A stretch of 63,190 nt of DNA, the filler included. It is 9 parts of 9 records of this genome, joined end to end, with 100 filler letters (N's around TTAATTAATTAA, not from the genome) between each part and the next. Parts side by side here need not be neighbours in the genome. Positions count along the whole stretch, not along the records: positions 34,436 to 42,125 come from SRR7504441_7615; 8 more parts are not named here. The stretch is one strand, 5' to 3'. Each line of letters begins with the position of its first letter. Within the stretch, counting starts at the first letter, position 1. Shown in pieces: positions 13,901-59,922 of the stretch. The position numbers were made by a program, and so were the translations under genes. A model generated the notes under the pieces. The model had not been told where the DNA came from and made no database searches. It saw only the letters and a program-made list of their open reading frames with translations.

Positions 13901-14000
13901 NNNNNNNNNNNNNNNNNNNNNNNNNNNNNNNNNNNNNNNNNNNNTTAATTAATTAANNNNNNNNNNNNNNNNNNNNNNNNNNNNNNNNNNNNNNNNNNNN
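13901..14000. other. Artificial contig spacer (N-TTAATTAATTAA-N). Identical spacers at 17998-18097, 21784-21883, 34336-34435, 42126-42225, 47511-47610, 54040-54139 and 59697-59796
   Basis: 100-nt N-padded six-frame stop linker repeated eight times. Confidence 0.98.
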
Positions 14001-17955: not shown

Positions 17956-18391
17956 GAATTTATGACCGGCGACACGATGGTCCGATGGTCCGAGTAANNN
18001 NNNNNNNNNNNNNNNNNNNNNNNNNNNNNNNNNNNNNNNNNTTAATTAATTAANNNNNNNNNNNNNNNNNNNNNNNNNNNNNNNNNNNNNNNNNNNNCAG
18101 AATCAACGGCCTTCGCTACATGTACACTTCACGCACGAGGATTCCACAACGTCCCAACGCAGGCGCCGAACGCATATAGGCCCAGCAACCGTACAGGACC
18201 AATCTCTTTAAGATTCATTTATGAAGCTTGCGCGGCAATAATTATACGGTACACTAAAATTACAAGCTACGTACGTATAGATTGTAACATTACGTATAAT
18301 GATCACGGCATTGTGACCCAGCCGCAGCCTCAAGCAGAAACGTAGAAACCGGACCACAAGCCAAGAGCACGCAGGCCGAGCGCGCGCGGCG

Positions 18392-19111
18392 TCACCGGCC
18401 GGCCAGGAACCGGCGGGACTCGCCCATCCTCGCGGCCACGTACTCGCTCCGCTTGTCGAGCCCCGAGATCCCGTGCTGGTGCTGGTCTGACATGCTGCCC
18501 TGGTTCCGCTTCCCGCCGTGCGTGCGCGAGTACGGCGTCACCGCCGCGGCGGTCCTGTGGTAGTTTGTCTCGCCCTTCCGAGGGTACATGGCCATCGGGC
18601 CGCCGTAGCCGTAGGCGGCCGCGTGGCTCCCGCATTCCAGTTCCTTGCCAAACTTGGTCACATAGTGCGGGGCGATGTGATCCCGCACCAGCACCGTGCA
18701 CGCGTGCGCCGGATTCAGCCCCCGGGTCGCCGCCATCTTCTCAAACACCCTCGTGAGCGCGGCCACAAACCTGTCGGCAGACAGTTTGACGGCAGGCCGG
18801 TAGGTGCTTCCAAGGGCGAGCTGGAAGAAGCCGTCGGCGTCTTTGGGCCGGGCGAAGAATTGGCAGGCCATGCAGAACTCGTGGAACTTGTCCCCGCGCA
18901 TGACGGGCTTGTTGGTGCTGTAATGATTGAACAGCGTGCCAAGGTCCACATTATGCTCGCTGCAGGTGGTAAACAGCAGAGAGAGCGAGCTGGAGGAGAC
19001 GCCGCTGCCCTCCCAGCTCACAGGGTGCCGGTCCAGGTGGTTGAAGAACATCGACGGCTCCTGCGCGTACCCGCGGCTGTTTGATCCGCACTCGCGCACC
19101 TCGCGAGGCAT
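18392..19111 (-). CDS. Hypothetical protein, possible p25-alpha/TPPP-like (EF-hand-like) domain
   Basis: 239-aa ORF. LFNHY..MRGDKFHEFCMAC..DADGFF..KLSADRFVAAL pattern. Divergent from the GH31 gene. Confidence 0.55.
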   Translation of the reverse strand: MPREVRECGSNSRGYAQEPSMFFNHLDRHPVSWEGSGVSSSSLSLLFTTCSEHNVDLGTLFNHYSTNKPVMRGDKFHEFCMACQFFARPKDADGFFQLALGSTYRPAVKLSADRFVAALTRVFEKMAATRGLNPAHACTVLVRDHIAPHYVTKFGKELECGSHAAAYGYGGPMAMYPRKGETNYHRTAAAVTPYSRTHGGKRNQGSMSDQHQHGISGLDKRSEYVAARMGESRRFLAGR

Positions 19112-19181
19112 TTTTGCCGCGTAACGTCATCCTGAAGCTCATGAAAAGAAAAGTGAGTCCTCGATTCATCACAGGGCGAGG

Positions 19182-21434
19182 ATGCAGCTGTGGGTGGTGA
19201 TGGGCGGAGCGGTGCTCCTCGTCGCGATGGCCGCGGCGGACGGGCGGCACCAGCTGGGCGAGTACTCTGTGTCCTGGTCGAGCGCCGGCCGGGTCCTGAT
19301 CGGGCGCGGCCATCGGCCCCCGGCGCTGGAATCTCACAAGCTGCTGGCGGCCAGCTGCGGCAACTGGTCGGCCCATGAGACCGCGGGCAACTTCGCCATC
19401 AGCTCACGGCCGGGCCGACTGACCGACCGGATGACAGTCGATCCCCCCGGGCGGATCAGCGCAACTCCCGATCGGCTGGTGCTGCAGGGCGGGCTGTCCT
19501 TCGACCCGCCGCAGCCCGGCTGCCCACCACTCCGGTACCGACTTAGCTTCCAGCTGGCCGGTTCGGCCCTCCAGCTGCTGGTCACGGCCCGGGCGGTCGG
19601 GGCCGGTCGGCCGGACCGGTTGGTGGTCGATTGGCTCCGGCAGCCCGGCGAGGAGTGGTACGGGCTGGGCACTCAGTACAGCACGTGGGAGCTTTCTGGC
19701 CGGAAGGTGCCAGTGTGGACCCAGGAGCAAGGGGTCGGCCGGGGGGTGCAGCCGCTCACGCTTGTGCTCAATCAGTTCAGCGGTGGAGCCGGCGGGAGCT
19801 GGTGGAGCACGTACTCCGCAGTTCCAATCGTGCTAAGCTCACGCTGCAGAGCGATCCTGCTAGAAAACACCGAATACGCCGAATTCGATCTGACAGGCAA
19901 CCAGTCGGGCGCGGTCTCGGTCCAGAGCTTGGATCTGCGCATGCGGCTCGTCTCGGCTGACAGCCCGCTCCAGGTGATACAGTCCGTTACGGAGTTCACA
20001 GGTCGGATGCGCCCTCTTCCAAGCTGGCTGAGCTCAGGCGGCGCGGTGCTTGGTTATGAAGGCGGCACTACAGGCGTGCTCGGGGTTGTAGATAAGCTGG
20101 CCAGCGCGCGGGTGCCACTAGCGGCGGTGTGGCTGCAGGACTGGTCGGGCGTTCGTCGGGACGGGTTCGGCGAACGAGTCGTGTGGAACTGGCAAACGAG
20201 CTACGATCGGTACCCGGGGTGGGACCAGATGCTCGGCCAGCTGCGGGAGCGGGGGGTGAGGGTGTTGAGCTACATTAACCCGTACCTGGCGGACTTTGCG
20301 GGAGGGAGAGATTTGTTCGATCGAGCCGCCGCATTAGGGTATCTGGTCAAGAATGCGAGCGGGTTGCCTTATATTCAGAACAGCGGTACTGAAATCTTCA
20401 CGTTTGGGACGGTTGACTTGACCAACCCCCAAGCTCGGGGCTGGTACTCCCGGGTGATACAGTGTAATATGCTCCGTGTGGGCGAGGGATGTGGCCCGTC
20501 CAACACGACCGGTCGGCCCGACAACTCGGCGAGCGTCGCGGGCTGGATGGCCGATTTTGGTGAGTACATACCGATGGATGCGGTGCTCCACCAGGGTCGG
20601 CCGGAGTCGGTGCATAACCAGTTCCCAGTGCTCTGGGCCGAGCTGAATGAAGCAGCTGTCAGCCAGGCGGGGGTAGACGAGCAGGCGGTCTTCTTTGTCC
20701 GGAGCTCGGGAGCTAGGAGCCCCGGCGCGGCCAGGCTGTTCTGGCTGGGCGACCAGCTGGTGACATTCGACGCGCAGGATGGACTGCGCTCGGCGCTTCT
20801 CGGGATGCTTAGCGCGGGGCTTGCAGGGCAGGCGTTGACTCATAGCGATATTGGAGGGTACACTATGATTGACGGCTATTGGGATGCGGAGAAATGCGTG
20901 CATGCCAAGTACGTCCGAACGCGTGAGCTACTCTACCGCTGGACGGAAATGAGTGCGCTGAGCGATGCGATTATGCGCACACATATGGGCAACCTGCCCA
21001 ATAATTCTGCCCAGGTATATTCAGACAACAGCTCGTTGGCTCACTTTGGACGGATGGTTCGCGCCCATCAGGCGCTGGCTCCTTACCGGCGGGAGCTGAT
21101 GCTGCAAGCCGCTGCCAGTGGGGCGCCGTTGGTCCGGCACCCTTGGCTTCACTACCCGTCCGATGCAAGGGCACGCAGCCTGACCAGTCAGTTCATGCTC
21201 GGGTCCGAGCTCATGGCAGCGCCTGTGCTTGATGCCAACGTGAGCAACGTGACGGTTTATTTGCCAGACCCGACGCAAATCTGGGTACATTGGCGGCGCA
21301 ATGAGCGGTTCAAGGGTGGGGCGACGTATCAAGTCCGGTGTGATATTGGAGAACTTGCGGTGTTTGCCCGTGCCGAGTTTGTGGAAAGCTCTTCCTGGCT
21401 CGATTTGCAAGCTGTCCTGCAGGAAGGCCACTAA
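19182..21434 (+). CDS. GH31 glycoside hydrolase, sulfoquinovosidase (YihQ)-like, with signal peptide
   Basis: Intronless 750 aa. EQGVGRG, WLQDWSG..FGERVVWNW, SYINPY, GWMADFGEY (nucleophile), WLGDQ (acid/base), HSDIGGYT and MRTH. Confidence 0.88.
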   Translation: MQLWVVMGGAVLLVAMAAADGRHQLGEYSVSWSSAGRVLIGRGHRPPALESHKLLAASCGNWSAHETAGNFAISSRPGRLTDRMTVDPPGRISATPDRLVLQGGLSFDPPQPGCPPLRYRLSFQLAGSALQLLVTARAVGAGRPDRLVVDWLRQPGEEWYGLGTQYSTWELSGRKVPVWTQEQGVGRGVQPLTLVLNQFSGGAGGSWWSTYSAVPIVLSSRCRAILLENTEYAEFDLTGNQSGAVSVQSLDLRMRLVSADSPLQVIQSVTEFTGRMRPLPSWLSSGGAVLGYEGGTTGVLGVVDKLASARVPLAAVWLQDWSGVRRDGFGERVVWNWQTSYDRYPGWDQMLGQLRERGVRVLSYINPYLADFAGGRDLFDRAAALGYLVKNASGLPYIQNSGTEIFTFGTVDLTNPQARGWYSRVIQCNMLRVGEGCGPSNTTGRPDNSASVAGWMADFGEYIPMDAVLHQGRPESVHNQFPVLWAELNEAAVSQAGVDEQAVFFVRSSGARSPGAARLFWLGDQLVTFDAQDGLRSALLGMLSAGLAGQALTHSDIGGYTMIDGYWDAEKCVHAKYVRTRELLYRWTEMSALSDAIMRTHMGNLPNNSAQVYSDNSSLAHFGRMVRAHQALAPYRRELMLQAAASGAPLVRHPWLHYPSDARARSLTSQFMLGSELMAAPVLDANVSNVTVYLPDPTQIWVHWRRNERFKGGATYQVRCDIGELAVFARAEFVESSSWLDLQAVLQEGH

Positions 21435-21883
21435 TGAGGCTTCCGTAGCGGCTTCCATGCTATGGATCCTGGCGGCTGTCCTTGTACGTATACTGTCTCG
21501 TAATGATCATGGTAACGATCCAGCGCCCGACATAGTTCATGGTATAGTTCAGAAATCCCGTGGAGAAATTCCCAACAAAAGTCCTAAGAAGCCTACATGT
21601 ATCAAATCTAATCATACACCTTTTTGACCCAAACTAATCAACAAGTTCGTTTTTAAAAGTTAATTCATATTTAAAGTCTGTTCTTGTCTCGAGGCAGGGC
21701 CACCAAAACCAACATGGGGAGCGCTTGTTTGGGACGTATTTGGGACGACCCACTCTGGCTTCTCTTCATGCCCCGTTCATTCANNNNNNNNNNNNNNNNN
21801 NNNNNNNNNNNNNNNNNNNNNNNNNNNTTAATTAATTAANNNNNNNNNNNNNNNNNNNNNNNNNNNNNNNNNNNNNNNNNNNN

Positions 21884-32054: not shown

Positions 32055-34335
32055 CTAAATCGAGTCAAGCCCTTGACTGAGTTTGCTCGCCGCCTCGTCG
32101 CCGAGCAGCTCGCGGGCTTTACTCACTATCTGAGCCACAGAGAGACTCTTCTCCGCTTGCTTGTCCTCAATTAAGTTCTGTTGGCTCAGCTTGCCCTTGT
32201 TCTCACTCTCCAGCTTCTCTAGGAGCTGATTCTCTACCATCCCACGGCACCCACCGTTGGCCTTGCACTGGTTATTCTGGTTGACGCACATGAAGCCCAC
32301 TTGGTTCCTGTTGCTGAAGTTGTTATTCCTGGTGGACATGTAAGAGAAGGAGCCTGCCTTGTTCATCTTCATCGCGCCACCGTCAAAGTAAGGAGTCCGA
32401 GTCCCTTCCCGATCCATTGCGCCATTCAGCTTGGCGCAGTTGCGCGGATCTCGTTCGCGATCATTGTTCTTCCTAATCTCGCCGAGCTGAGCCAGAGTGA
32501 GGCATTGCTGTCCATTCTGTTTCATGTTTGCATGCTGGTTCAGGAAGGCCATCTTCATGATCGCAGCCTTGTCCGGCTGGCCTTGTGGCGTCCAGAACAT
32601 GCCCTTGTAGTTCTTGCCCAGATCCTTCCAGTTGGCCGAGGTGACCGACCCCGCCGGGTAATTGGTGCCGGCCGCCACCTCACCAGCATGCTGCCCGTTG
32701 TCAGTAGCCCCCAGCTGCGGCTGCTGCTGCGGCCTGCGCCTGCGCCTGTTCCGTGCTTTCCCGATGGGCGTCTTTGGCATCAAGTCCTGATCGACAAGGT
32801 TGCTCCGATCGGCCCGGCTGCCGCGATTTCTCCTGTTCTCAGCCAAATCGCCTGCGCCCTCAGCATCATTCGGGTTACGTCGCGGGTTGTAATCAGACCC
32901 CGTCCACTGGAAATGGACGTAGTCACCTTGGTTGATACACAGATCGTTGGGGACGAAATCGTATTCAACCGCTGGGTAGACCTGTACAATATTCCCCCTC
33001 TTGCCCCTCACTCCGAGGTTATAGACTTTAGCATTGGCCATGGCAGCCGGGCGCTGCCTGATTTCAAACACATACGACCGATCCTGGAACGTACGGCCGT
33101 ATTGGTTGGTGTTGACTGCCAGCGAGAGGAAAGTGGACTGGCCGTCATCGCCCAGCCCGAGGTAAGGATCCTGCACCACTGGGCTTGAGCCTGGCCTCCT
33201 CCTGCGCTCGTTGTCAGCCGAAGTCGCCTTTGGCGTGCCCTCGTTATCCCAAGCCCAGTAGTCGGAGGTCGAAATGTTGTACCGCAGCCGGAGCACGCAA
33301 TCCTTCTGAGCGTGGTCGGGAATCGTCCATATGTATCGGCTAGGATTGACACCATGAGGGATTGCCGGGTCGGGATTTGCAGTCTCGCGAGCATTACCCA
33401 GATGATTCTCGCGAGAGCTGCTCGACTTGCCATTGACGCAATCAACGGTCTTAGCGTCCTTGGGCTCATTGGCTTCCAGCCAGTCCTGGTCCTTAAGATC
33501 GGTCACCTCTGTCCACTGATCGCCAGACTTGCCGGATTCGGCCAGCAGCTGCCTGTTGGCCTGCCGCGTCTTGGGGTGGCTTGGGTCCCACCAGACCAGC
33601 TTGCGCACCTTGCCGTTCGGACAGCCGTCCTTATCCGTCCCGCCCGCCCCCGGTACGCACACCGAGCGAGGCTTGACATTGGCGCTCTCCCTCTTGTAGA
33701 ACTCGCAACGCTCAGGGTTGTTGGTGATGACTGCAATATCCCGCCAAGGCGACACGTCCCAGTATGGATAGTAGTCCCTCTCCTCCGGCACTTCAAGCCC
33801 TCGCCGGTTTCCATTTGGGTTCTGTCGAGTGGCGAGCGCCCCCTTCCTCCCTTGCACATTTTGATCGGCTGTGTATAGCCCACCGTTACGCGGCCTCTGC
33901 TTAGCGGCCTTGTAGTAATCAATCCCCTCGTGCATCCCGAACCGGCGGGTCTGAGGCGTGTTTGCCACCGCGGACTTGTCGTCCTCCTTTATCCTATCGG
34001 TGGCCGCATCGTTGTCGTCTTTGGGCGTCCCGTCACGCGGGGCGCCGACCTGTCCCTGTGGCCCGCGGTACTTCTTGGTCGGGTCGAGTGTGTCCTCGCA
34101 GGCGTACTGGAGCACGATCTCGCACCCGGTCATCGGGTTAGTCCCGCACCTGCCCACCCGCGTGAGCACCACCCGACATGCGGACGGCAAGCAGCCCGCT
34201 TACCCATGCTGGGCGGTCCACTCAACTGCGAGCTTGGAGCCGGTGTAGTAGTAGGTCTTGTCCACCTTGGTCTCCGGCCCGACCTGCGGCCGCGGGCACG
34301 CGTACCCGCCCTTGGCGTTGTTCTGAGAGTCGAAC
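32055..34335 (-). CDS. Protein DD3-3-like, 5'-truncated by contig edge
   Basis: FDSQNNAKGGY, WTAQHG|CG, PEERDYYPYW..SPWRDIA, CVLRLRYNIST, VNTNQYGRTFQDRS, GKRGNIVQVYPAVEYDFVP and STRNNNFSNR. Confidence 0.85.
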
Positions 34336-34484
34336 NNNNNNNNNNNNNNNNNNNNNNNNNNNNNNNNNNNNNNNNNNNNTTAATTAATTAANNNNNNNNN
34401 NNNNNNNNNNNNNNNNNNNNNNNNNNNNNNNNNNNGCACACCGCTGCAGGGGGCACACCGCTGCATGCAGGGCGAGGGGTGAGG

Positions 34485-35303
34485 ATGGGCAGGGGCCCGG
34501 CGGCCCTGCAGACGCTGGACCAGCTCAGTGCTGAGACCGCCGCCCGCGGTGCCCTGCTGGCCCGGGCCGAGCAGGCCGCAGCCGCACAGCCCAACTCGAC
34601 CCGCGCTTTCGAGGTTGCGCACGCCCGGCTCAGGCTCGCCCAGGCCGCGGCAGCCGAGGAGGTCGCCGAGCGGAACAGAGATGTAATGCGGCACCCAGCA
34701 CCACTGGCCCCGCCCAATCTGCACGAGCTGGCCCGCCGGCGCATGGGCCTCAAAAGCACGGGCGGTCCTCACGCGCTCACCGTTCCGATCAAAACCGCCA
34801 CCCCGGCCAAAACCCGGCGACAGAGCCTCGAGCCGGCGGTGCCGGAGCTGGACCCGGAGATCGCGGCCAAGATCGAGCGCGACAGCCGGCTGCAGCACGA
34901 GCTCCAGAGCTGTGCCAAGAGCAAGGCCAAGGGTGTAGCGGCCTGGATATCCAGTGTCAAGGGCGTGGCGGCTATGGAGCTGAACCGGCAGCAGGAGAAT
35001 GAACTTTACTTGGAGCGTGAGCTGTGTCGGCTCAAGGAGCTTGCCGAGCACGAAGACAATGTCCTTAGGCAGCAACAATTGGATGCGAAAGAGCAACAAC
35101 GTGAGCTGAGCCGTCAGAAGAGCAGAGCAAAGGAACTTGCAGAGCAGAAGACGGCTGAACTGGATAGACTGGTCAAGAAGGCGTTAACCGAGATGCGTGA
35201 ACGTGTAGCTCAAGGGACATTACTGCCGGGAGACGGACCTAACTTTGATCCAATGAGTCAAGTATCATCAATAATGGCACGTGAACAGTGTGAGCAGGGG
35301 TGA
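34485..35303 (+). CDS. Hypothetical coiled-coil protein
   Basis: Uninterrupted ORF with E/Q/R/K-rich heptads. Confidence 0.65.
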   Translation: MGRGPAALQTLDQLSAETAARGALLARAEQAAAAQPNSTRAFEVAHARLRLAQAAAAEEVAERNRDVMRHPAPLAPPNLHELARRRMGLKSTGGPHALTVPIKTATPAKTRRQSLEPAVPELDPEIAAKIERDSRLQHELQSCAKSKAKGVAAWISSVKGVAAMELNRQQENELYLERELCRLKELAEHEDNVLRQQQLDAKEQQRELSRQKSRAKELAEQKTAELDRLVKKALTEMRERVAQGTLLPGDGPNFDPMSQVSSIMAREQCEQG

Positions 35304-37155
35304 CAAAGTCCGCATCGCTTTGGTTGAAAGGAGCGAACTAGTGCCGGTGCTTATAGACAATGAAAGGCCACCTACACAGGGTGGTCAATCTCAGAACAAG
35401 ATTCAAGTGGACTCGCCTGCGCCACTGAATGTACTGCCGTCTCCCCCACGACAGTCTTGAAATCTCACATTCCGGAAGCTCCGAGAGATGTGAGCTACGC
35501 GTCCGTATCCATCATGTACAGAAAAGCCGCCTGCTCCCCCGAATGATGCATTCTGACCACCGGTACAGTTGATGATTGTTAGATTCGAAACATTCAGGAC
35601 TGTATTCTCAAGTCGATCAGCATAAGAAAATAAAGTTACACCGCCTGCACCAGCTCCCTTGACACCGGATTTTGGAATATTGCTGTCTCCACCAGAAGTG
35701 TCTCTGACAGTCACATTTTGCATCGTATAACTATTGCTGTCGATGTGACTCCTGGTCGACGTGTAGGTATAGAGGTGGAGACCTGTTGCCCGATGCTCCA
35801 TAGGTGTGTGGCACGATACAGCGTGCAGTGGACCTTGCAACCGAAGGGCAGCACATATGCGTGTACCCAGGAACCACTGCACACACAAGTTGCAACATCA
35901 ACGTGATAGGTAAAAGCCTGTTCATCATGGGCATTGGCGCTCAAGTAACCCTGGACTGCCTGGGTCAAGGTCCAGGCTTTATATTCAAGGACGCAGACAC
36001 CATAGTTTTGGATAACTTGCTCATCCGTAGTGCGGTCGCTGGCGCTTTGCAGGCTCTAGACAATGCCCTAGGTGCTGGTGGCATGACTGCACTTGGCATC
36101 AAGAATCTCACTTTGACGCGAACCAGCTTCATCAATTGTAGTGGTGCAGCTGCTGGGGCCATCCTGGCCAGCTCGGTTGTCGACAGCGGCGCCATCAATC
36201 ATATAAGAGAATTCCGTGATGTGTCCGTCCATGATTGCCACCAGGTGTGCTTGTCCTGTGAGGAACCTGCCCGTGCTCCTTTCCAGAGATGTCGCGACTG
36301 TACACACGATTCACAAGGACAGCAATCACTCACTGGCAATTATTACCCAATGATTGCTGGTGGTATTGCCATCGGCTGCTGCGAGCTGCATTGACTGCTG
36401 TCACTGCCCTCGGGGTGCACATGCAACTGACATCCCTCAAACACTGGCAGCGGAGTTGGGGCTTCGGTATAAGTCAACCCACCTCCGCAAGCACAGCACG
36501 CTGTGTTGGCCGTGTACTCGGGCTCTCCATTTGCTGAGGAGTCTCCCCACGTGCATTCATGGCCCGGGACCCAGGAGCTATCTTCGAGCGACTTCTTGTA
36601 ATACCAGGCACAGCTATATTCCTGCCCGTCGCTGTCATGCCACAGGCTTCCATCTGATAAGTTGTAGTTGAAACAGTTTGGAAAGCCTGCCGTCGGGGCG
36701 GACGTCGGGGCCCCAGTGGGAGCGGGCGAATCGTCCGCCCAGCACAGCCGCCACCCGGCGAATTTAGTGAACCGCATGTTGACCCAATCTTCCCCCTGCA
36801 CAGACGGCCTCCAGCTCACTGTGGCCCCTGCGTCCACGGGGGCTCCGAGCGGACCGCAGAACTGGTCATCGTTGTCACCACAGTTCGAGCCGTGGCCCGA
36901 GTAGTCAGTGCCGTCCACTGTAAGCTTGTCTTGCCCGACATACCCGCCCCAGGTGGCGAACTGGGGGCTGCTCACCCAGCCGGCCGCGGACACACTGAAC
37001 TGGCACTGGCTCATGTTATACTTGCCGGGCCAGCCAGGGCTGGTGACGCACTGGGCGCCATCCGCTTGGCACACCGAGCCGGCCGGCAGCACGAACGCCC
37101 CAGCGCGTGCCTCCTGCACCAGGAGCGCGGCCAAGAGCACGAGCTGCATCGCCAT
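35268..37155 (-). pseudogene. Secreted/surface protein (CUB-like + Cys-rich module + right-handed beta-helix/PMP-like repeats) disrupted by internal inversion 35807-36372
   Basis: Signal peptide, CVTSPGWPGKY..GWRLC, WHDSDG..TANTACCACGGG and HVHPEGSD..C..QQP on the - strand. The continuation CGTIQRAV...AGGIA is on the + strand. The gene resumes TYGASGN..NVTVRD..GAGAGG on the - strand. Confidence 0.8.
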
Positions 37156-37264
37156 ACGGCTGTCGGGCCCTGCACCAGGCAGCAGGCGTGTGGACCGCTC
37201 CCCGCCCGCCTTTTCAAGGGATGCCACTGCCAGGGTTGCTTTCCGTTGACTTGTCGTTGACACA

Positions 37265-38312
37265 ATGCTCATCCGGAGGGTCGGGCTGGCAGCAGCAAGC
37301 CGGTGGGCGGGGCGGTCGTACTGGGCGGCGGACGGGATCCCGCTGGACCCGGAGTACGGGATCCCTGCGCTCGGGCTGGGCACCAGGCTGGAGGCCGCCC
37401 TGCCGCAGATCAGCCGGGCGCTGGCGGCCGACGGCTTCTACACGGCCCGCGGCTGGCTGGGCGAGCGGATCTGCGCGGCCATGCGGGCCGACGCGGTCCG
37501 GATGCGGCTGACGGATTCCTGCGGGGATGTCAAGTTCCAGCAGTCGCTCTCGGTAGGGGCCGACGGGGTGCCCTTCCCAAAGACCGGCGTGTTTAGCGCC
37601 GAGCTGGACGGTGCGGCCCTGGAGGCCTTGGAAGACGGTGGGCAGGGCACGAGTGGGACGAGGCGCCTCACCTGCTGGCTTACACTAGAGAGCTGATGCT
37701 GTCCGGGCCTGCCGGGCTGAATCGAGTAGACGGGCGGGGGCTCTCTGCCCGGGTGTACGGGACAAAGCTGGCGGTGGCCGAGGGCGGCGGCTCGCGCTAT
37801 CCGAAGCACGTGGACAATGCGTGCGAGTGCGACGCGTCGGGCCAGTTGATGGACCGGCGGAAGCTGACGGTGATTTACTATCTGAATCCCGAGGTGGGTT
37901 TGGTATGGAGAACGCTGAGTAGTCGGGCAGTTGGATGTTTCAGACGGCGGGCAGCTCCGGCTGTGGGACAAACAGGATCGCCAGGTCGAGATCGATCCGG
38001 GTGGGCGCGCGCATTGGGCCAATCAGTTGACTAGGGTGCCAGTGGGCGACACGGTGGTCATGTTTTGGAGTGATACATGTGTGCATGAAGTGCTGCCGAA
38101 TGTGAATGACCCATCGGCGAGTCTGTGTCCGTTGCGCTGTGGCTGAGCGCGTTGTGGTGCAGGACGCGAGCCGGCATCGGTGGGCTTTGACGGTGTGGAT
38201 GGTCGAGGAAGGTGGTGATGGCGAATCCTTGTGCGATAAAAGTACTGAGGAATGGGCTGCGGTGGAGGCGCACTTCAAAACAGAATCTTCAGGACAAACT
38301 AACTTAGAATGA
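37265..38312 (+). CDS. 2OG-Fe(II) oxygenase, EGL-9/PHD prolyl-hydroxylase-like; probable mitochondrial presequence
   Basis: YPKHVDN, RRKLTVIYYLNP, GGQLRL, FWSD..HEVLP and HRWALTVW. Four introns, two GC-AG (37625-37662, 38117-38162). Confidence 0.85.
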
Positions 38313-38401
38313 CCACCAACCGCACCGATTAAATCTGTACCTACACGTTTATCGTGATTATGGATGTGCTGAAGGCAAACCAAAAGCCGTTGGAGCACAC
38401 G

Positions 38402-40726
38402 ATGCGCCGCAGGCTCTTCTTGTTGGTCGTGCTGGCGGCAGCGGCAAGTGCCGGGGAGCTGCCGGAGCTGGCTGTGACTGGCTCAACGACCGCTGATGCC
38501 CGAGTCTGGCTCAACGGCCGCCAGTGGTTCGCCAACCGACTGGTTTCGCTCAACGTGGCCGGCCGGCTGTACTCCACCGCCCCCGGGGCCGCCCACCCGC
38601 TCCGCTTGCTGGCAAGCACCAACAGCACGGGGGTGGGGCCGTGGGGCAGCTACCAGGCGGTCCAGGCCGTGTGGCTGGCCAACAAGACCCGGATGATCAC
38701 AAAGGTGCTCCTGTACCACGCCGCGGATGCGCTCGTGTTCTCACAAAGCTTTCCGGACGGAGTGAGCAACCCGCCGGGCGGCGACAAGAACGGAGTGCTC
38801 TCTGGCTTCCCGGTGTTTGCACCCGAGACCGTGCCGGGCCCGCAGCGGCTGTGGATGGGGTACAACGGATGGGATTGCGATGAGCAGTACGGCTGCGTCC
38901 ACTCGCAAGCCCAGCGAGTGGCGCTCGGTCAATGGGACAACGGCACTGCCGTGCTGCCGTACGGGCTGGAGGGCAGCGGGCCGCTTGTAGTGATGAACTC
39001 GTCTGGCGAGAGCAGCGTGGTGATCTCGGCGGCTAGCAGCTTTATGGTGGCTAGCCAGCAGTACACAGCTGGCGGCCCGCTCAGCTTTGGCGTGATGGGC
39101 AGCGTGACGGAGATCCCGGCCAACTTCTCGGTCGAGTTTGTGATGGTTGCCGGCCGCGGGCCAAACCATGCCGTCCGGAGGTGGGGCAGCCTGCTCCGGT
39201 CGCGATACAAGAAAAGCAACCCGGAGGGCAAAGACTTGACTACAGCCAAGCTCGGGTACGATACTGATAATGGGGCGTTCTACTATTATAACCCTGAGCC
39301 GGGCAAGACATACGCCCAGACTTTGATGGATGTCAAGGCCGATGCTGAGCAGAAGGGGTTGCCGTTCAGACACGTCCAGCTAGATTCGTGGTGGTACATC
39401 AAAGGAGCCGGCGGTGGCACAAAGACGTGGTCGCCGGGCCCCAATACCTTCCCAGACGGGCTGGCGGTCTTCTCGAACGCCACTGGGTGGAAGATTACGG
39501 CGCATAATAGAATGTGGAGCTCAGAAGTGACCTATGCCAGGCAGAATGGCGGCGATTACCCGTGGCTGATCAACGGTACCGAAGCTGTGCCGACCAGTCA
39601 GGCCTTCTGGAACTGGCTGATGGCCTCCGCCAAGAGCTGGGGGCTGGTTGTGTACGAGCAAGACTGGCTGTTCACAGAATTCGTTGGCAGTCAGCAGCTG
39701 CTCGGATCTGCCGGGTTGGCCCGCGACTGGCTGATGCAGATGGGCCAAGCAGCTGAGGCCAACGGGATAGCAGTGCAGTACTGCATGCTTTGGCCCCGGA
39801 TGGCGCTCCAATCGCTGGAGCTGCCTGCTGTGACCACGGCTCGTGCCTCGACCGACTACGGGGCAGGCAAGAACGACCAGTGGGTGATGGGGCTCTCGTC
39901 TCTCTTCCTAGACTCGCTGGCCCTCCGCCCAACCAAGGACAATTTCTTCAGCACGGACCACCAAGGCAAGGGCAACCCCAAGGGCATTGAGCATTTCAGC
40001 AGACTGCAGTCGCTGGTCTCCACCCTGTCCACAGGCCCGGTTTTCCCGAGCGATGCGATTGGGTGCAGCGACCCAAAGCTGATTATGCGCTCGTGCACCG
40101 AGGACGGTTCTTTGCTCAAGCCTGATCGGGCCGCAACTAATCTGGACAGCAATATTCTGAGCAAAGCTCTCGCTCGGGCCTCCGGGTCTACCGAGCCTGG
40201 GGAGTTGCAGAGCACCACAGCGACTGTCTCTGGTGTGCAGTACTCGCTGCTCCTGGCGGCCAACTCGACAGCGTACAATATGACCCTCGCAGAGCTCATC
40301 CCAGAGGCGGCGAGCGGTGCTCGCTTTGCCGCATTCGAATCAAATAGTACAGGCAGCCTGGAGCTATTTGATTCGACACATCCCATTAGGATCAGAACAA
40401 ACGACAGATGGAGCTTTGAGTTTTGGACCGTCGCACCAGAGCTCGGCCACGGTATGTTCTTTCTAGGGGAACAGGATGAAAAATGGGTGGCTGTGAGCCC
40501 ACAGCGTTTTGTGAGCATTGAAGCCAGCCAGCCGGGCCAGCTGCAGGCCAAGTTTGTTGGCGAGGCTGGAGAACCGGTGCAGCTCGCTTGGGCTTGGACC
40601 GGCACTGGCACTGGTGCTGACATACACAGGCAGTCTGTCATCTGCAAAGTTGGCAGCGATGGCTTTGGCCGTGCGATCCTAAACAACGACGGTTCAAATC
40701 AGTGTATGCAATCGCCGAGCAACTGA
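38402..40726 (+). CDS. Secreted uncharacterised glycoside hydrolase (TIM-barrel, GH27/GH36-clan-like)
   Basis: Intronless; signal peptide; YDTDNGAFYYY, QLDSWWY, AHNRMW, YEQDW, QYCM, ARASTDY and LSTGPV..SD..G. Confidence 0.7.
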   Translation: MRRRLFLLVVLAAAASAGELPELAVTGSTTADARVWLNGRQWFANRLVSLNVAGRLYSTAPGAAHPLRLLASTNSTGVGPWGSYQAVQAVWLANKTRMITKVLLYHAADALVFSQSFPDGVSNPPGGDKNGVLSGFPVFAPETVPGPQRLWMGYNGWDCDEQYGCVHSQAQRVALGQWDNGTAVLPYGLEGSGPLVVMNSSGESSVVISAASSFMVASQQYTAGGPLSFGVMGSVTEIPANFSVEFVMVAGRGPNHAVRRWGSLLRSRYKKSNPEGKDLTTAKLGYDTDNGAFYYYNPEPGKTYAQTLMDVKADAEQKGLPFRHVQLDSWWYIKGAGGGTKTWSPGPNTFPDGLAVFSNATGWKITAHNRMWSSEVTYARQNGGDYPWLINGTEAVPTSQAFWNWLMASAKSWGLVVYEQDWLFTEFVGSQQLLGSAGLARDWLMQMGQAAEANGIAVQYCMLWPRMALQSLELPAVTTARASTDYGAGKNDQWVMGLSSLFLDSLALRPTKDNFFSTDHQGKGNPKGIEHFSRLQSLVSTLSTGPVFPSDAIGCSDPKLIMRSCTEDGSLLKPDRAATNLDSNILSKALARASGSTEPGELQSTTATVSGVQYSLLLAANSTAYNMTLAELIPEAASGARFAAFESNSTGSLELFDSTHPIRIRTNDRWSFEFWTVAPELGHGMFFLGEQDEKWVAVSPQRFVSIEASQPGQLQAKFVGEAGEPVQLAWAWTGTGTGADIHRQSVICKVGSDGFGRAILNNDGSNQCMQSPSN

Positions 40727-40969
40727 AGAGCAATCATGAGCTTGCGGAAGAGATACGGAAGAGATCACTGTAATTCGGAAGTATAGACGCACCCACGGTT
40801 GGACTCGCAAGTAAGTACTTTATATAATAAAACTTGCTACGAGTATCTTGCCCTTCAGCCGGTCGGCTTATAAGACAAGCCATGCCTTGCATGTTTTCAA
40901 TTCATGAGTTTGCGTGTACGAGTATGCACAATCCGAATCATCACCAGCCAATCCAGCTCATCCAACTCA

Positions 40970-41855
40970 TCAAAGACCTGCAATAATGATTCCAACGATG
41001 TCACCGACGGCCTTGCCAGCGCCTTTGAAATCCTGGCCGCGCCAGTCAGCGCTCACTGCCTTGCAGTCGGTGGTGATCTCAGTCCGTTTCTGGAAGATGT
41101 GTACGGCGTCCTCCACCACAACCTTGATCACATCCAGAACGTTCCCGCTGAGTGCTGTAGCGACGTCGTGGATCTTGGCTGCAAAGTCCTTCGCGTCCTT
41201 CACGCAGGTAGCGATCGCTGTCCCAAAGTCCTTCAGCATTGTCCCGATCAACTCGAACGCTTTGACCACGGCTGGAATGGTCTTGTGGTTGAATCCTTCC
41301 TCGAAAAAGTCGACGACCGCCTTGATGTCCCGCGCGGTCTGGTTTCCCCAAACCGGTCAGAGGTCATTCACCGGGCAACAGGCGCACCTGGTTGATGTCG
41401 GCGAGGCAGTCGGCGAACCCGATCTCGGTGCCGAGCCCTTCGGTGAACCCGACGAGAAACTGACCGACCTCCTTGGCAACGGTTGCGGCGGTGGGCGGGG
41501 GAGGCCCACGAACGCAGCTGAAATCGAGGGTGGTCCCCTTGCACACGTAGGTGACTTGTGTGGCGTTGATTGGATCATACAGGATAGATTCGGAGGGGGT
41601 GACGGTCTTGCCCCATACTGCGCTCACCACCGGGACCAAGCTGTCGCCAGCCGAGACATTGCCCATCGAGGTAGTGTCGATGCACTTGCTTTGCCACACC
41701 GGGTAGCTCTTTGTCGAGCCGGAATTGACACCCGAATCCTTGTCCGCCAGCTTCCAGTGGAGCACGAATGCGGCATCGTTGTAAACGCAGACGCTATTGG
41801 CGGTCAGCTCGGAGGCGGCGGCTGATCCAACCAGGAGCAACACTACATGCCACAT
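40970..41855 (-). CDS. Secreted two-domain protein (beta-rich N-domain + amphipathic helical C-domain)
   Basis: Signal peptide MWHVVLLLVG. One GT-AG intron (~41339-41387) joins ORFs 41364-41954 and 40970-41269 in frame. Confidence 0.75.
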
Positions 41856-42482
41856 TGCCTGTTGCGTCGAGCAACGGACGCGTTGCAGCTGCAGCAAGCC
41901 GAAAAATAGAGCTCGAGTGCGACAAGCTTGCACAAAGAATAAGAATAAGGACACTTATCATGAAGTGTTCTAGAAAGGTTTATCAGGCTCACACAGCTCA
42001 CACCTTCAAAGACTCCGAAGACTCCTAGAAGACTCCGCGACTCCGGATCCATCTAAATATGATTCTCATCTTCGCAAATTGAGTCCCGATTGGCGGCGGG
42101 CGGGGGCGTCCGCGCCATTTCCCCTNNNNNNNNNNNNNNNNNNNNNNNNNNNNNNNNNNNNNNNNNNNNTTAATTAATTAANNNNNNNNNNNNNNNNNNN
42201 NNNNNNNNNNNNNNNNNNNNNNNNNAAATCGACAGTCAGAGTGACTGCAGAAGTCATTCAACGGGCGGGGAGAGGATCGCGGTGATCAGCTGCAAATCGG
42301 ATCAACGGAAACACCTGGAGGCAACTTCTCCTCCAGCTCCGGCCAGAGGCGTGTACGCAGCCTGTGGCGTGGGATAAAGCCGCCCTTCTCGAAAGCTGAG
42401 CGCGCTCACCACGGTGTTGCCTGGGCTGGTCCGCACCTACGACAGCCGGTTGGAGGGAAGCGCCCACAAGCCAGCCGCCGCC

Positions 42483-47473: not shown

Positions 47474-47610
47474 CACCTGTCATCCAAATCAGGCCTACAC
47501 CTGGTCCGCTNNNNNNNNNNNNNNNNNNNNNNNNNNNNNNNNNNNNNNNNNNNNTTAATTAATTAANNNNNNNNNNNNNNNNNNNNNNNNNNNNNNNNNN
47601 NNNNNNNNNN

Positions 47611-54039: not shown

Positions 54040-54139
54040 NNNNNNNNNNNNNNNNNNNNNNNNNNNNNNNNNNNNNNNNNNNNTTAATTAATTAANNNNN
54101 NNNNNNNNNNNNNNNNNNNNNNNNNNNNNNNNNNNNNNN

Positions 54140-55964
54140 GGCCTGCTCCACGAGCTTGGCACTGGCTTCTGCGTTCTCAGACTCTCGTCGTGAGTGGTCC
54201 AGGTTGGCAGACTCCAGCGCGCTCTGCAACGACAGCATCGACAGGGCGTGCTCCACCTCGATGGACTGCTTCTCAGCTACCATTTCAGAAATCTTTGATT
54301 CGGCGAGGCTCAACTTGCGCTGTAGGCTGCTCTCGGCATCTTCGCCTGGTTTGGAGTCCCGGTTCTGGCTCTCAGCAGCTGCCATCTGTCTCTCGAGCGC
54401 AGCAACCTTGCTCTTGAATACGGCCGCCTCATCAGCCTTGGCTGCAACAGTCTTGAACTTTGCCTTGCTTTGTTCGAGCGCCGCGTTGGCCTCGGCTAGC
54501 TTGGTGCCGGCGCTCTTCACCTGCTGCTCCTTGGAAGCCAGCTGCGCCTCCAGCTCTTCGATTTTGAGTTCGTCCACTCTTCTGGAGACTCCTTGCGCTG
54601 CAGTCGCCTGCTTTGTGAGTGAGGACATAACTGCCTGTGCCTGCGACTGGTCTGCAGACAACTCGTGATTCTGTGCCTTCAAACTAAGCACTTGACCCTC
54701 TGCGTCCGCCAGTTTGCGCGCGAGCTCGTCGGATTTGGCCTGTGCAGCTGAATTTGCCTCTTGAGAGCCTTCAGCCTGTGACAGCTGCAGCTTCCTCAAC
54801 TCGTCCGCCTTCGCGGCCTCGGCCTTCTGAGCTTCTTCCAGAGCTTGCTTAGCTTGCTTCAGCTCCTCCGCGGTGGCTGCTTCAGCCGTCTTGGATGCCC
54901 CCAGCGCTGCCTCCACCTCCGCCAGCTTGCCGGCCTGAGTGTCCTTAGAATCCGCAGCCTGGCTCGCTGCCTGGGCTTTAGCCTCCGCAAGTTCGGCCTC
55001 AAGCTCAGCGATCCGCTTGGCTGCCGCCTCCGCCTGCTCCTGCTTCAGCTTCTGCTCTTTACTCAACTCCGCTTGGAGCTCCGCCAGCTTGGCTGCCTGG
55101 TTTGTCGCCTCCGCATCGCCAGCCTGGGCCACGCCCGTCAGCTTGGCCTGCGCCTGATCCAGCTCGGCCTTCTGCTGGGCAGCTTGCTGCTCCACCTGGT
55201 CTAGCTTCTCCTGCAGGTCTAGCCGGCCCTGGGTCTCCTTGGCCAGCTGCTTCCTGTGCGCCTCCTTTGCCAGCTTCTGGCCCTCCTTCATCGCCTCATT
55301 CTCAGCCTCCAGCTCACTGATCTTTACAAGTTGCTCCTTCGCCCGCGAGTCAGCTGCCGACTTGGCCCCCTGCTCGGCCCCGGCTAGCTGCTGCTCCAGA
55401 GTGGCCAGCTTCCCCTGAGCCGCCTGCAGCTCGCTCCGCAGCTCGGCCTGTCCTGCCTGGCTCGCCTCCAGCTTAGCTTGCTTCTCCTGTGCCTCCTCCT
55501 CGAGCGCCTTCACCTGCGCGCTCGTCTGCCGCTTCGCCTCGGCCACGCCATCGCTCTCGGCCAGTTTGCCCAGCTCGAGCGCTGGCACCTGGGGCGAGCT
55601 GCTCGGCTTAGGCTCAGTAAGCTCGCTGATCCCACTGACCGCCGAATGCAGGCTGGCCGTGCTGCTCGGCGTCGGCAGTGGCGACTCCTGCACCCGCTCG
55701 ACCGGGCCCGGCTGGCGGCCCGGCACCTCCACAGGCGGGGGTGGCGGCGCAGCCGGCTCCTCCTTTGCGGGGGTCACTGAGGCGCTCGTCGGGGCCGATT
55801 CATCGCCTCCGGCGGCCTGGCCCTTCTTCTTCTTCTTCTTCTCTTCCTTCTTCTTCTTGTGCTTCAGGAAGAGCGCATCTGGCGCCCGGTCGGATGGAGG
55901 CCGGGGCGGGCCGGGCACCGAGGTCGCGGCGCTTCTTTTGACGCTGTTCTTCCTCGGGATCCAT
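54140..55964 (-). CDS. Long coiled-coil protein (golgin-like N-terminus), 3'-truncated
   Basis: MDPEEEQRQKKRRDL|DALFLKHKKKK after one GT-AG intron; extended A/E/K/Q heptads. Confidence 0.75.
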
Positions 55965-56162
55965 CGCGCTGGGCGAGCGCACCTAGCGAGTGCCGGGCGG
56001 CGAGTTGCCCGAGCTGCCAGGCTAGCCGGCCAGTCAGCCAAGCAGGAGGCCGGGCAGGCACCGCCAAGCCACCCAGGCAGCCACCGGATCGATTCGCGAG
56101 CCCTGGCGGTTGCGTCAAGAAAAAAATTCAGCGGCGACGTCGATCGCGAATTGCTGCAGCTG

Positions 56163-56199
56163 ACGTGTTCCGATTGATCCATACGTGTTCCGATTGATC
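56163..56199. repeat. 17-bp direct repeat ACGTGTTCCGATTGATC x2 in divergent promoter region
   Basis: Copies at 56163-56179 and 56183-56199. Confidence 0.85.
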
Positions 56200-59664: not shown

Positions 59665-59922
59665 CGGTTGTCTAGTACAGACCTAGACTCAGGCTCNNNN
59701 NNNNNNNNNNNNNNNNNNNNNNNNNNNNNNNNNNNNNNNNTTAATTAATTAANNNNNNNNNNNNNNNNNNNNNNNNNNNNNNNNNNNNNNNNNNNNGCAT
59801 CTCCGGCGGCGCAGAGAGGATGAAAATGAGGATCTATGAGCAGCGCCCAAGCTCGTATTAAACCTGAATCGCGCTTTTATTACATAGTAAGCAGCAGTGT
59901 AGGTGATTATCTATGGCAAGAT

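Follow-up and report, generated by a model that had tools for sequence, protein, structure and literature searches.

The locus described here raises the question of how a gene for a presumably secreted repeat protein came to carry an internal piece of its own coding sequence in backward orientation, and whether this arrangement is present in the DNA of the organism concerned. The gene is located on the minus strand of the analyzed window, i.e., the whole stretch of DNA of 63,190 nucleotides. Eight identical 100-nt spacers of the structure N44, TTAATTAATTAA, N44 were observed in the window (13901-14000, 17998-18097, 21784-21883, 34336-34435, 42126-42225, 47511-47610, 54040-54139 and 59697-59796). 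The window therefore consists of nine separate contigs of approximately 3.4 to 13.9 kb, and neighborhood across a spacer is meaningless. The gene itself resides on a contig of 7.7 kb (34436-42125).

The features of the gene are summarized in Table 1. Direct reading of the ATG at 37155, the breakpoints, the segment, the intron and the stop showed that all coordinates given in the initial annotation of this locus are correct. The first part of the gene encodes a hydrophobic, signal-peptide-like start followed by cysteine-rich N-terminal domains, as read from its translation, and its last codon before the right breakpoint is CCG (36375-36373, read directly in the minus-strand frame). In the arrangement of the window, the product would be truncated at 270 residues (261 + 9). 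The inverted segment codes for the predicted helix cap (TIQRAVDLA) and for the initial rungs of the putative beta-helix. It is open solely in frame 1 of the plus strand, where its freedom from stop codons had already been noted, and contains 4 to 12 stops in each of the other five frames. The repeats of the last exon follow the patterns NVTVRD..GG, NLTIINCTGG..GGAGG and NVRFQDCRGG, and the length of the spliced collinear read-through is a multiple of three. Flipping the segment indeed restores both reading frames, as initially described; as evidence of design this observation does not hold, since any clean inversion does so.

Table 1. Features of the beta-helix gene and its inverted segment; positions refer to the window.
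Feature	Position	Strand	Description
First part of gene	36373..37155	-	261 codons from ATG 37155-37153, ending ...SSQCSSQQP
Out-of-context tail	36343..36372	-	9 codons MAIPPAIIG, stop 36345-36343; antisense of inverted piece
Inverted segment	35807..36372	+	566 nt, 188 codons + 2 bases, CGTIQRAVDLA...PMIAGGIA, no stop
Left breakpoint	35806..35807		No inverted repeat with right breakpoint
Right breakpoint	36372..36373		On codon boundary of upstream part
Gene resumption	35783..35806	-	Last (third) base of split codon, TYGASGN, 2 bases of next codon to donor
Predicted intron, 46 nt, GT..AG	35737..35782	-	Predicted from the frame, which stops without the intron and runs to the stop at 35403 with it
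Last exon	35403..35736	-	Begins SNSYTMQNVTVRD...; beta-helix repeats; stop 35405-35403

Within the gene (35403-37155), a sharp step in composition was observed at the right breakpoint, with a GC3 of 0.74 for the N-terminal part vs. 0.52-0.54 for the inverted segment and for the last exon. This step is not a sign of a two-gene chimera, because natural contigs (see below) bridge both parts. Moreover, a candidate in-frame GT..AG intron of 78 nt (36245-36322, plus strand) may be located inside the inverted segment, in a cysteine-rich stretch. The homologue P0012 has a 31-residue gap over this candidate, and residues 150-184 of the structural model, its only long low-confidence part, show pLDDT values below 50 there. 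The convergent neighboring gene (34437-35303, plus strand) encodes a charged, coiled-coil-like protein; it ends approximately 100 nt from the stop of the beta-helix gene, is truncated on its 5' side by the contig border, and has a single, weak match in Pfam (DUF4407, E 0.009).

Taken alone, an open frame of such length is weak evidence, given that 504 of the 1148 566-nt pieces sampled across the window are open as well. Since open 566-nt frames are common in this GC-rich, gene-dense window, it is homology, and not the open frame, that lifts the observation above chance. Based on an exhaustive HMMER search, 12 proteins matched the inverted segment at E<=0.001 (best 7.7e-11). Ten of these were fetched, among which P0004, P0006, P0009 and P0012 were used for junction alignments. 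These four proteins originate from ENA metagenome assemblies and have the same architecture as the window gene, namely a cysteine-rich N-terminal part, the cap motif and GG/GGAGG repeats. Left out of the junction alignments were P0003, P0005, P0008, P0010, P0013 and P0014, long proteins with many repeats or of bacterial appearance whose match is confined to the first ~120 residues of the segment, whereas P0007 and P0011 were used in one other alignment only.

In tblastn searches against the raw window, residues 165-305 of P0012 were placed on the plus strand (35807-36241) and its residues 333-388 on the minus strand (35588-35421), with a similar result for P0009. The match started exactly at 35807 in three of the four homologues and at 35813 in P0006. 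For blastp, a read-through protein was built with an X at each break, placing junction A at position 262 and junction B at position 451. P0012 (query 230-558, E 1e-20) and P0009 (query 242-532, E 5e-19) each aligned to it in a single HSP spanning both junctions, and the alignment of P0004 (E 7e-19) spanned junction A. Junction A was thus covered by three of the four homologues and junction B by two, P0004 and P0006 being too short for the latter. Furthermore, the ~30 final residues of the first part of the gene align with P0012, P0009 and P0004 in the stretch immediately before the cap motif of these proteins. Homologues match the raw window on the plus strand from 35807 and then on the minus strand further downstream, and they align without a break across both junctions of the read-through protein; the collinear order is therefore ancestral. 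At the level of sequence comparison, the 566-bp segment was confirmed to be inverted relative to this ancestral collinear gene. Protein searches for close relatives, comparing the segment with longer proteins and the N-terminal part with proteins of near lengths, returned none. Likewise, 195 pattern matches in JGI metagenome contigs led to no confirmed related locus, and the exact 24-nt flank pattern had no match in the metagenome, viral and genome contig collections.

Regarding the nature of the product, a beta-helix-type secreted repeat protein is a reasonable assignment. The initial annotation had named the locus a surface beta-helix gene; the beta-helix part of this designation appears reasonable, whereas for the surface part a signal-peptide-like N-terminus but no anchor was seen. 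The cap motif TIQxAxDxA was recognized by eye ahead of the first rung in all ten fetched relatives, including typical bacterial multi-repeat proteins. The repeats of the gene (N-x-T/S-hydrophobic ... GG ... GGAGG) resemble those of right-handed parallel beta-helix proteins (Pfam families Beta_helix PF13229, Chlam_PMP PF02415 and DUF1565 PF07602). No Pfam family scored above its threshold on the pieces from the window or on the homologues, the best match on the homologues being Beta_helix on P0006 (E 0.11; 12.5 bits vs. a cut-off of 25.9), and sequence searches returned no relative of solved structure. The segment as modelled by AlphaFold2 (mean pLDDT 73.4, pTM 0.74) consists of a helix at residues 2-10 followed by 10 strands. 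Foldseek searches against the PDB gave no match at E<=0.001 (best E-value 0.03), and the list of weak matches comprises mostly beta-helix or solenoid chains, mostly enzymes, e.g., a PL6 alginate lyase (probability 0.99, TM 0.47). Of the named Atlas clusters, the nearest carry the families Chlam_PMP, Beta_helix and DUF1565, at a score (0.83) that represents a lead only.

The collinear form of the gene was encountered in seawater. A search of public sequencing runs returned 12 marine or seawater metagenome runs containing small shares of the region, none of them an RNA run. Contigs of four runs (X1-X4, originating from four studies) were placed on 34500-37500, giving eight records and a very thin cover, with a depth of about 2. 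Only two of the eight records reach a breakpoint, namely record 1 of X1 (151 nt, 0 mismatches) and record 8 of X4 (267 nt, 1 mismatch). Both contigs, which derive from different studies and different years, join 36373 (minus strand) straight to 35807 (plus strand) with no extra letters and 1 bp shared. The predicted QQP|CGTIQ join was thus found in natural contigs, and the microhomology of 1 bp given in the initial annotation has the same value there. The unflipped gene exists in nature and is essentially 100% identical to the window where the sequences overlap. The statement that no base was gained or lost is thereby supported independently for QQP|CGT; for the other junction it follows only from the frame and the homologue alignments, the four runs leaving the second collinear join (36372 to 35806), the central part of the segment and the intron uncovered. 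The two junctions of the window itself are carried by none of the eight records and lie where the four runs have no cover, so that this result speaks neither for nor against them. The run type of X1 and X4, listed as 'DNA?', is a guess.

Contigs of run X3 differ from the window in several respects. They match 35299-35566 and 34638-34670 at 90-99%, with one base missing at 35383, and continue into dissimilar sequence ahead of 35299 (144 nt) and of 34638 (18 nt) and past 34670 (143 nt). This pattern suggests that X3 contains a related strain or species, or a paralogue, whose 3' intergenic region appears to be different.

Among the explanations considered, a real and very young two-break inversion allele truncating the protein is the leading one, to which we assign about an even chance; of the three options offered in the initial annotation, its 'very recent inactivating inversion' still leads. 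According to this explanation, the normal, ancestral and circulating form would be the collinear minus-strand gene with a product of ~568 residues. In the derived allele represented by the window, the 566 bp of 35807-36372 would have been cut at two points and rejoined backwards without loss of a base, either by two breaks and end joining or by a replication template switch, a route to which a site-specific recombinase would not fit. End joining or template switching is favored over a recombinase because no repeat is present at the ends. Translation of the inverted allele would end after the 261 + 9 residues and the beta-helix would not be made, i.e., the allele would represent a loss-of-function structural variant. 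The inversion would be very young, because the flipped piece is still open and, where the sequences overlap, identical to the wild collinear copies. We infer the presence of the window's arrangement in the organism's DNA, as well as the repair mechanism.

Small inversion polymorphisms arise by two-break end joining or template switching. The window resembles such ordinary polymorphisms in its clean reciprocal junctions, the little microhomology, the knocked-out gene and the intact allele that still circulates; no tested feature differs, and the inverted arrangement was seen in the window alone. If the inverted allele is real, an uncultured marine eukaryote in which the intact allele still circulates would offer a clean natural case of a secreted repeat protein knocked out by a two-break inversion, and thus a modest population-genetic curiosity and a marker for strain tracking. 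What is new here is the natural circulation of the collinear allele. The gene model can be corrected, and the practical gain consists in the correct annotation of the beta-helix gene model.

A less probable but serious competitor is that the organism has the collinear gene only and that the backward orientation of the 566-bp piece arose in amplification, assembly, scaffolding, gap-closing or later in-silico processing of the record. The only independent records reaching a breakpoint (two records, from two of the four runs) are collinear with 0-1 mismatches, which counts in favor of this explanation. Moreover, the window is composed of nine short contigs strung together by N44-TTAATTAATTAA-N44 linkers, which indicates a draft assembly of metagenome or single-cell type in which errors are commoner. 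Neither the flipped piece nor any downstream exon is damaged, and the zero decay seen there would look the same in an artefact; in addition, the breakpoints lie at arbitrary positions devoid of a biological signal such as repeats or splice sites. On the other hand, a de Bruijn-graph contig should not be able to hold junction words absent from the reads, and mis-traversal of the graph is not expected where the microhomology is 1 bp and inverted repeats are missing. The window also lacks further signs of such errors: only two inverted-repeat pairs of at least 30 nt, both low-complexity AAG runs, were found as potential palindromic fold-backs elsewhere in it. No other strand-flip anomaly was seen in a codon-usage scan, which is coarse and places the beta-helix gene itself below its threshold, and no split domains appeared in a Pfam scan of 10 ORFs beside opposite-strand neighbors.

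Chimeras formed during multiple displacement amplification (MDA) deserve particular attention in this context. According to the account of Lasken and Stockwell (2007, PMC1855051), inversion was seen in 406 of the 475 MDA chimeras, inverted sequences with intervening deletions accounted for more than 85% of the rearrangements, and in 76.8% of the junctions the 3' end was primed on at least two complementary bases. Like these chimeras, the flip in the window is short-range, spanning less than 10 kb, and shows little or no homology where the ends meet. Unlike the chimeras described there, which have a single joint and an intervening deletion, the window has two reciprocal joints, no lost base and 1 bp of microhomology; one junction was found to be lossless in comparison with natural contigs, and the frame is kept at the other. 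Two exactly reciprocal, lossless junctions are what a physical inversion gives, unlike the commonest amplification artefact, and two independent MDA chimeras with exactly complementary breakpoints would be required. The earlier view that two reciprocal junctions are hard to obtain from one amplification chimera is therefore sound, MDA chimeras being single junctions as described in PMC1855051; it does not extend to other assembly and processing artefacts. If the flip is an artefact, the locus serves as a warning that precise, reciprocal and repeat-free inversions can sit in draft eukaryotic assemblies and truncate gene models.

Improbable, in our estimation, is a programmed and reversible inversion, i.e., a eukaryotic counterpart of bacterial intragenic invertons that switches the secreted beta-helix protein off and on in the population. 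Bacterial phase variation often controls variable, repeat-rich secreted proteins of this kind, which counts in its favor. Both orientations exist for nearly identical sequence (the window vs. X1 and X4), the flipped piece shows no decay, and, if the assembly represents a population consensus, the flipped form would have been in the majority in its sample. However, a repeat search found no inverted repeats pairing the two breakpoints, and the 24 nt at one breakpoint match the reverse complement of the other at 8 of 24 positions, i.e., at chance level. A recombinase site is disfavored because of this lack of inverted repeats. In agreement with the initial annotation, no recombinase family was found among the 20 long ORFs of the window scanned against Pfam, the gene's own contig comprising just 7.7 kb. 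Furthermore, the two orientations were never found together in one sample, and the known homologues are all collinear proteins. The switch option raised earlier thus gained no positive support, and the evidence is accounted for by the ordinary options, a young knockout inversion or an artefact.

Comparison with known systems leads in the same direction. Ciliate scrambled genes, with their programmed inverted DNA, carry pointer repeats on their segments, and the inversion-based mating-type switch of methylotrophic yeasts uses long inverted repeats; the breakpoints in the window have neither kind of repeat. The closest programmed analogue known are the bacterial and archaeal intragenic invertons. 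These elements, as described by Chanin et al. ('Intragenic DNA inversions expand bacterial coding capacity', PMC10028968), possess inverted repeats and an invertase and occur in both orientations in one clonal population. The window shares with them a segment within coding sequence and two orientations, one of which has a premature stop. It differs from the invertons of that report in having no inverted repeats, a defining feature of this class, and no recombinase seen, in originating from a eukaryote and in having its orientations in different data sets. Less probable again is the specific proposal that a marine protist flips the 566-bp piece back and forth without inverted repeats, by a mechanism unlike that of bacterial invertases, so that populations would differ in making the protein. 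If true, this repeat-free switch would represent the first case of a eukaryotic nuclear gene turned on and off by an intragenic DNA inversion. A literature search for such an inversion in eukaryotes, a weak search and no proof of absence, returned only prokaryotic work. Wide importance would attach to the locus only under this unlikely switch reading.

Finally, it is highly improbable that the DNA is truly inverted and the message rescued at the RNA level, by rejoining of the pieces (a scrambled gene) or by splicing that skips the antisense piece: a donor-like TGG|GTAATA (36346), located immediately ahead of the premature stop, is in frame with the acceptor (exon start 35736), and the type of the runs X1 and X4 is only guessed to be DNA, but the resulting product of 380 residues would have no cap, the skip would delete the cap and the first helix rungs and need a 610-nt intron vs. 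the 46 nt of the sole intron predicted, and DNA is by far the simpler explanation of a collinear junction found in metagenome-labelled runs. Splicing from this donor to the exon start at 35736 thus appears unlikely from the sequence. The 'scrambled gene needing rearrangement' of the initial annotation is likewise disfavored, as the collinear junction is ~100% identical in contigs of two runs listed as DNA, a label that was guessed.

Apart from the beta-helix gene, the following observations were made in the window. Three long ORFs score well as coding sequence and match no Pfam family at E<=0.001, namely 32055-34199 (minus strand, 714 aa), 38333-40726 (plus strand, 797 aa) and 54092-56197 (minus strand, 701 aa); they represent putative lineage-specific or poorly known proteins. 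The well-scoring ORFs 18395-19126 (minus strand) and 19125-21431 (plus strand) abut within 2 nt on opposite strands and are probably divergent genes. The former has no family, and the latter encodes a GH31 glycosidase for which the Pfam match begins only at residue 315. Moreover, the window contains a fragment of a CHD1-type helicase, the relatives of which are only 28-55% identical and originate from plants, algae, animals and protists.
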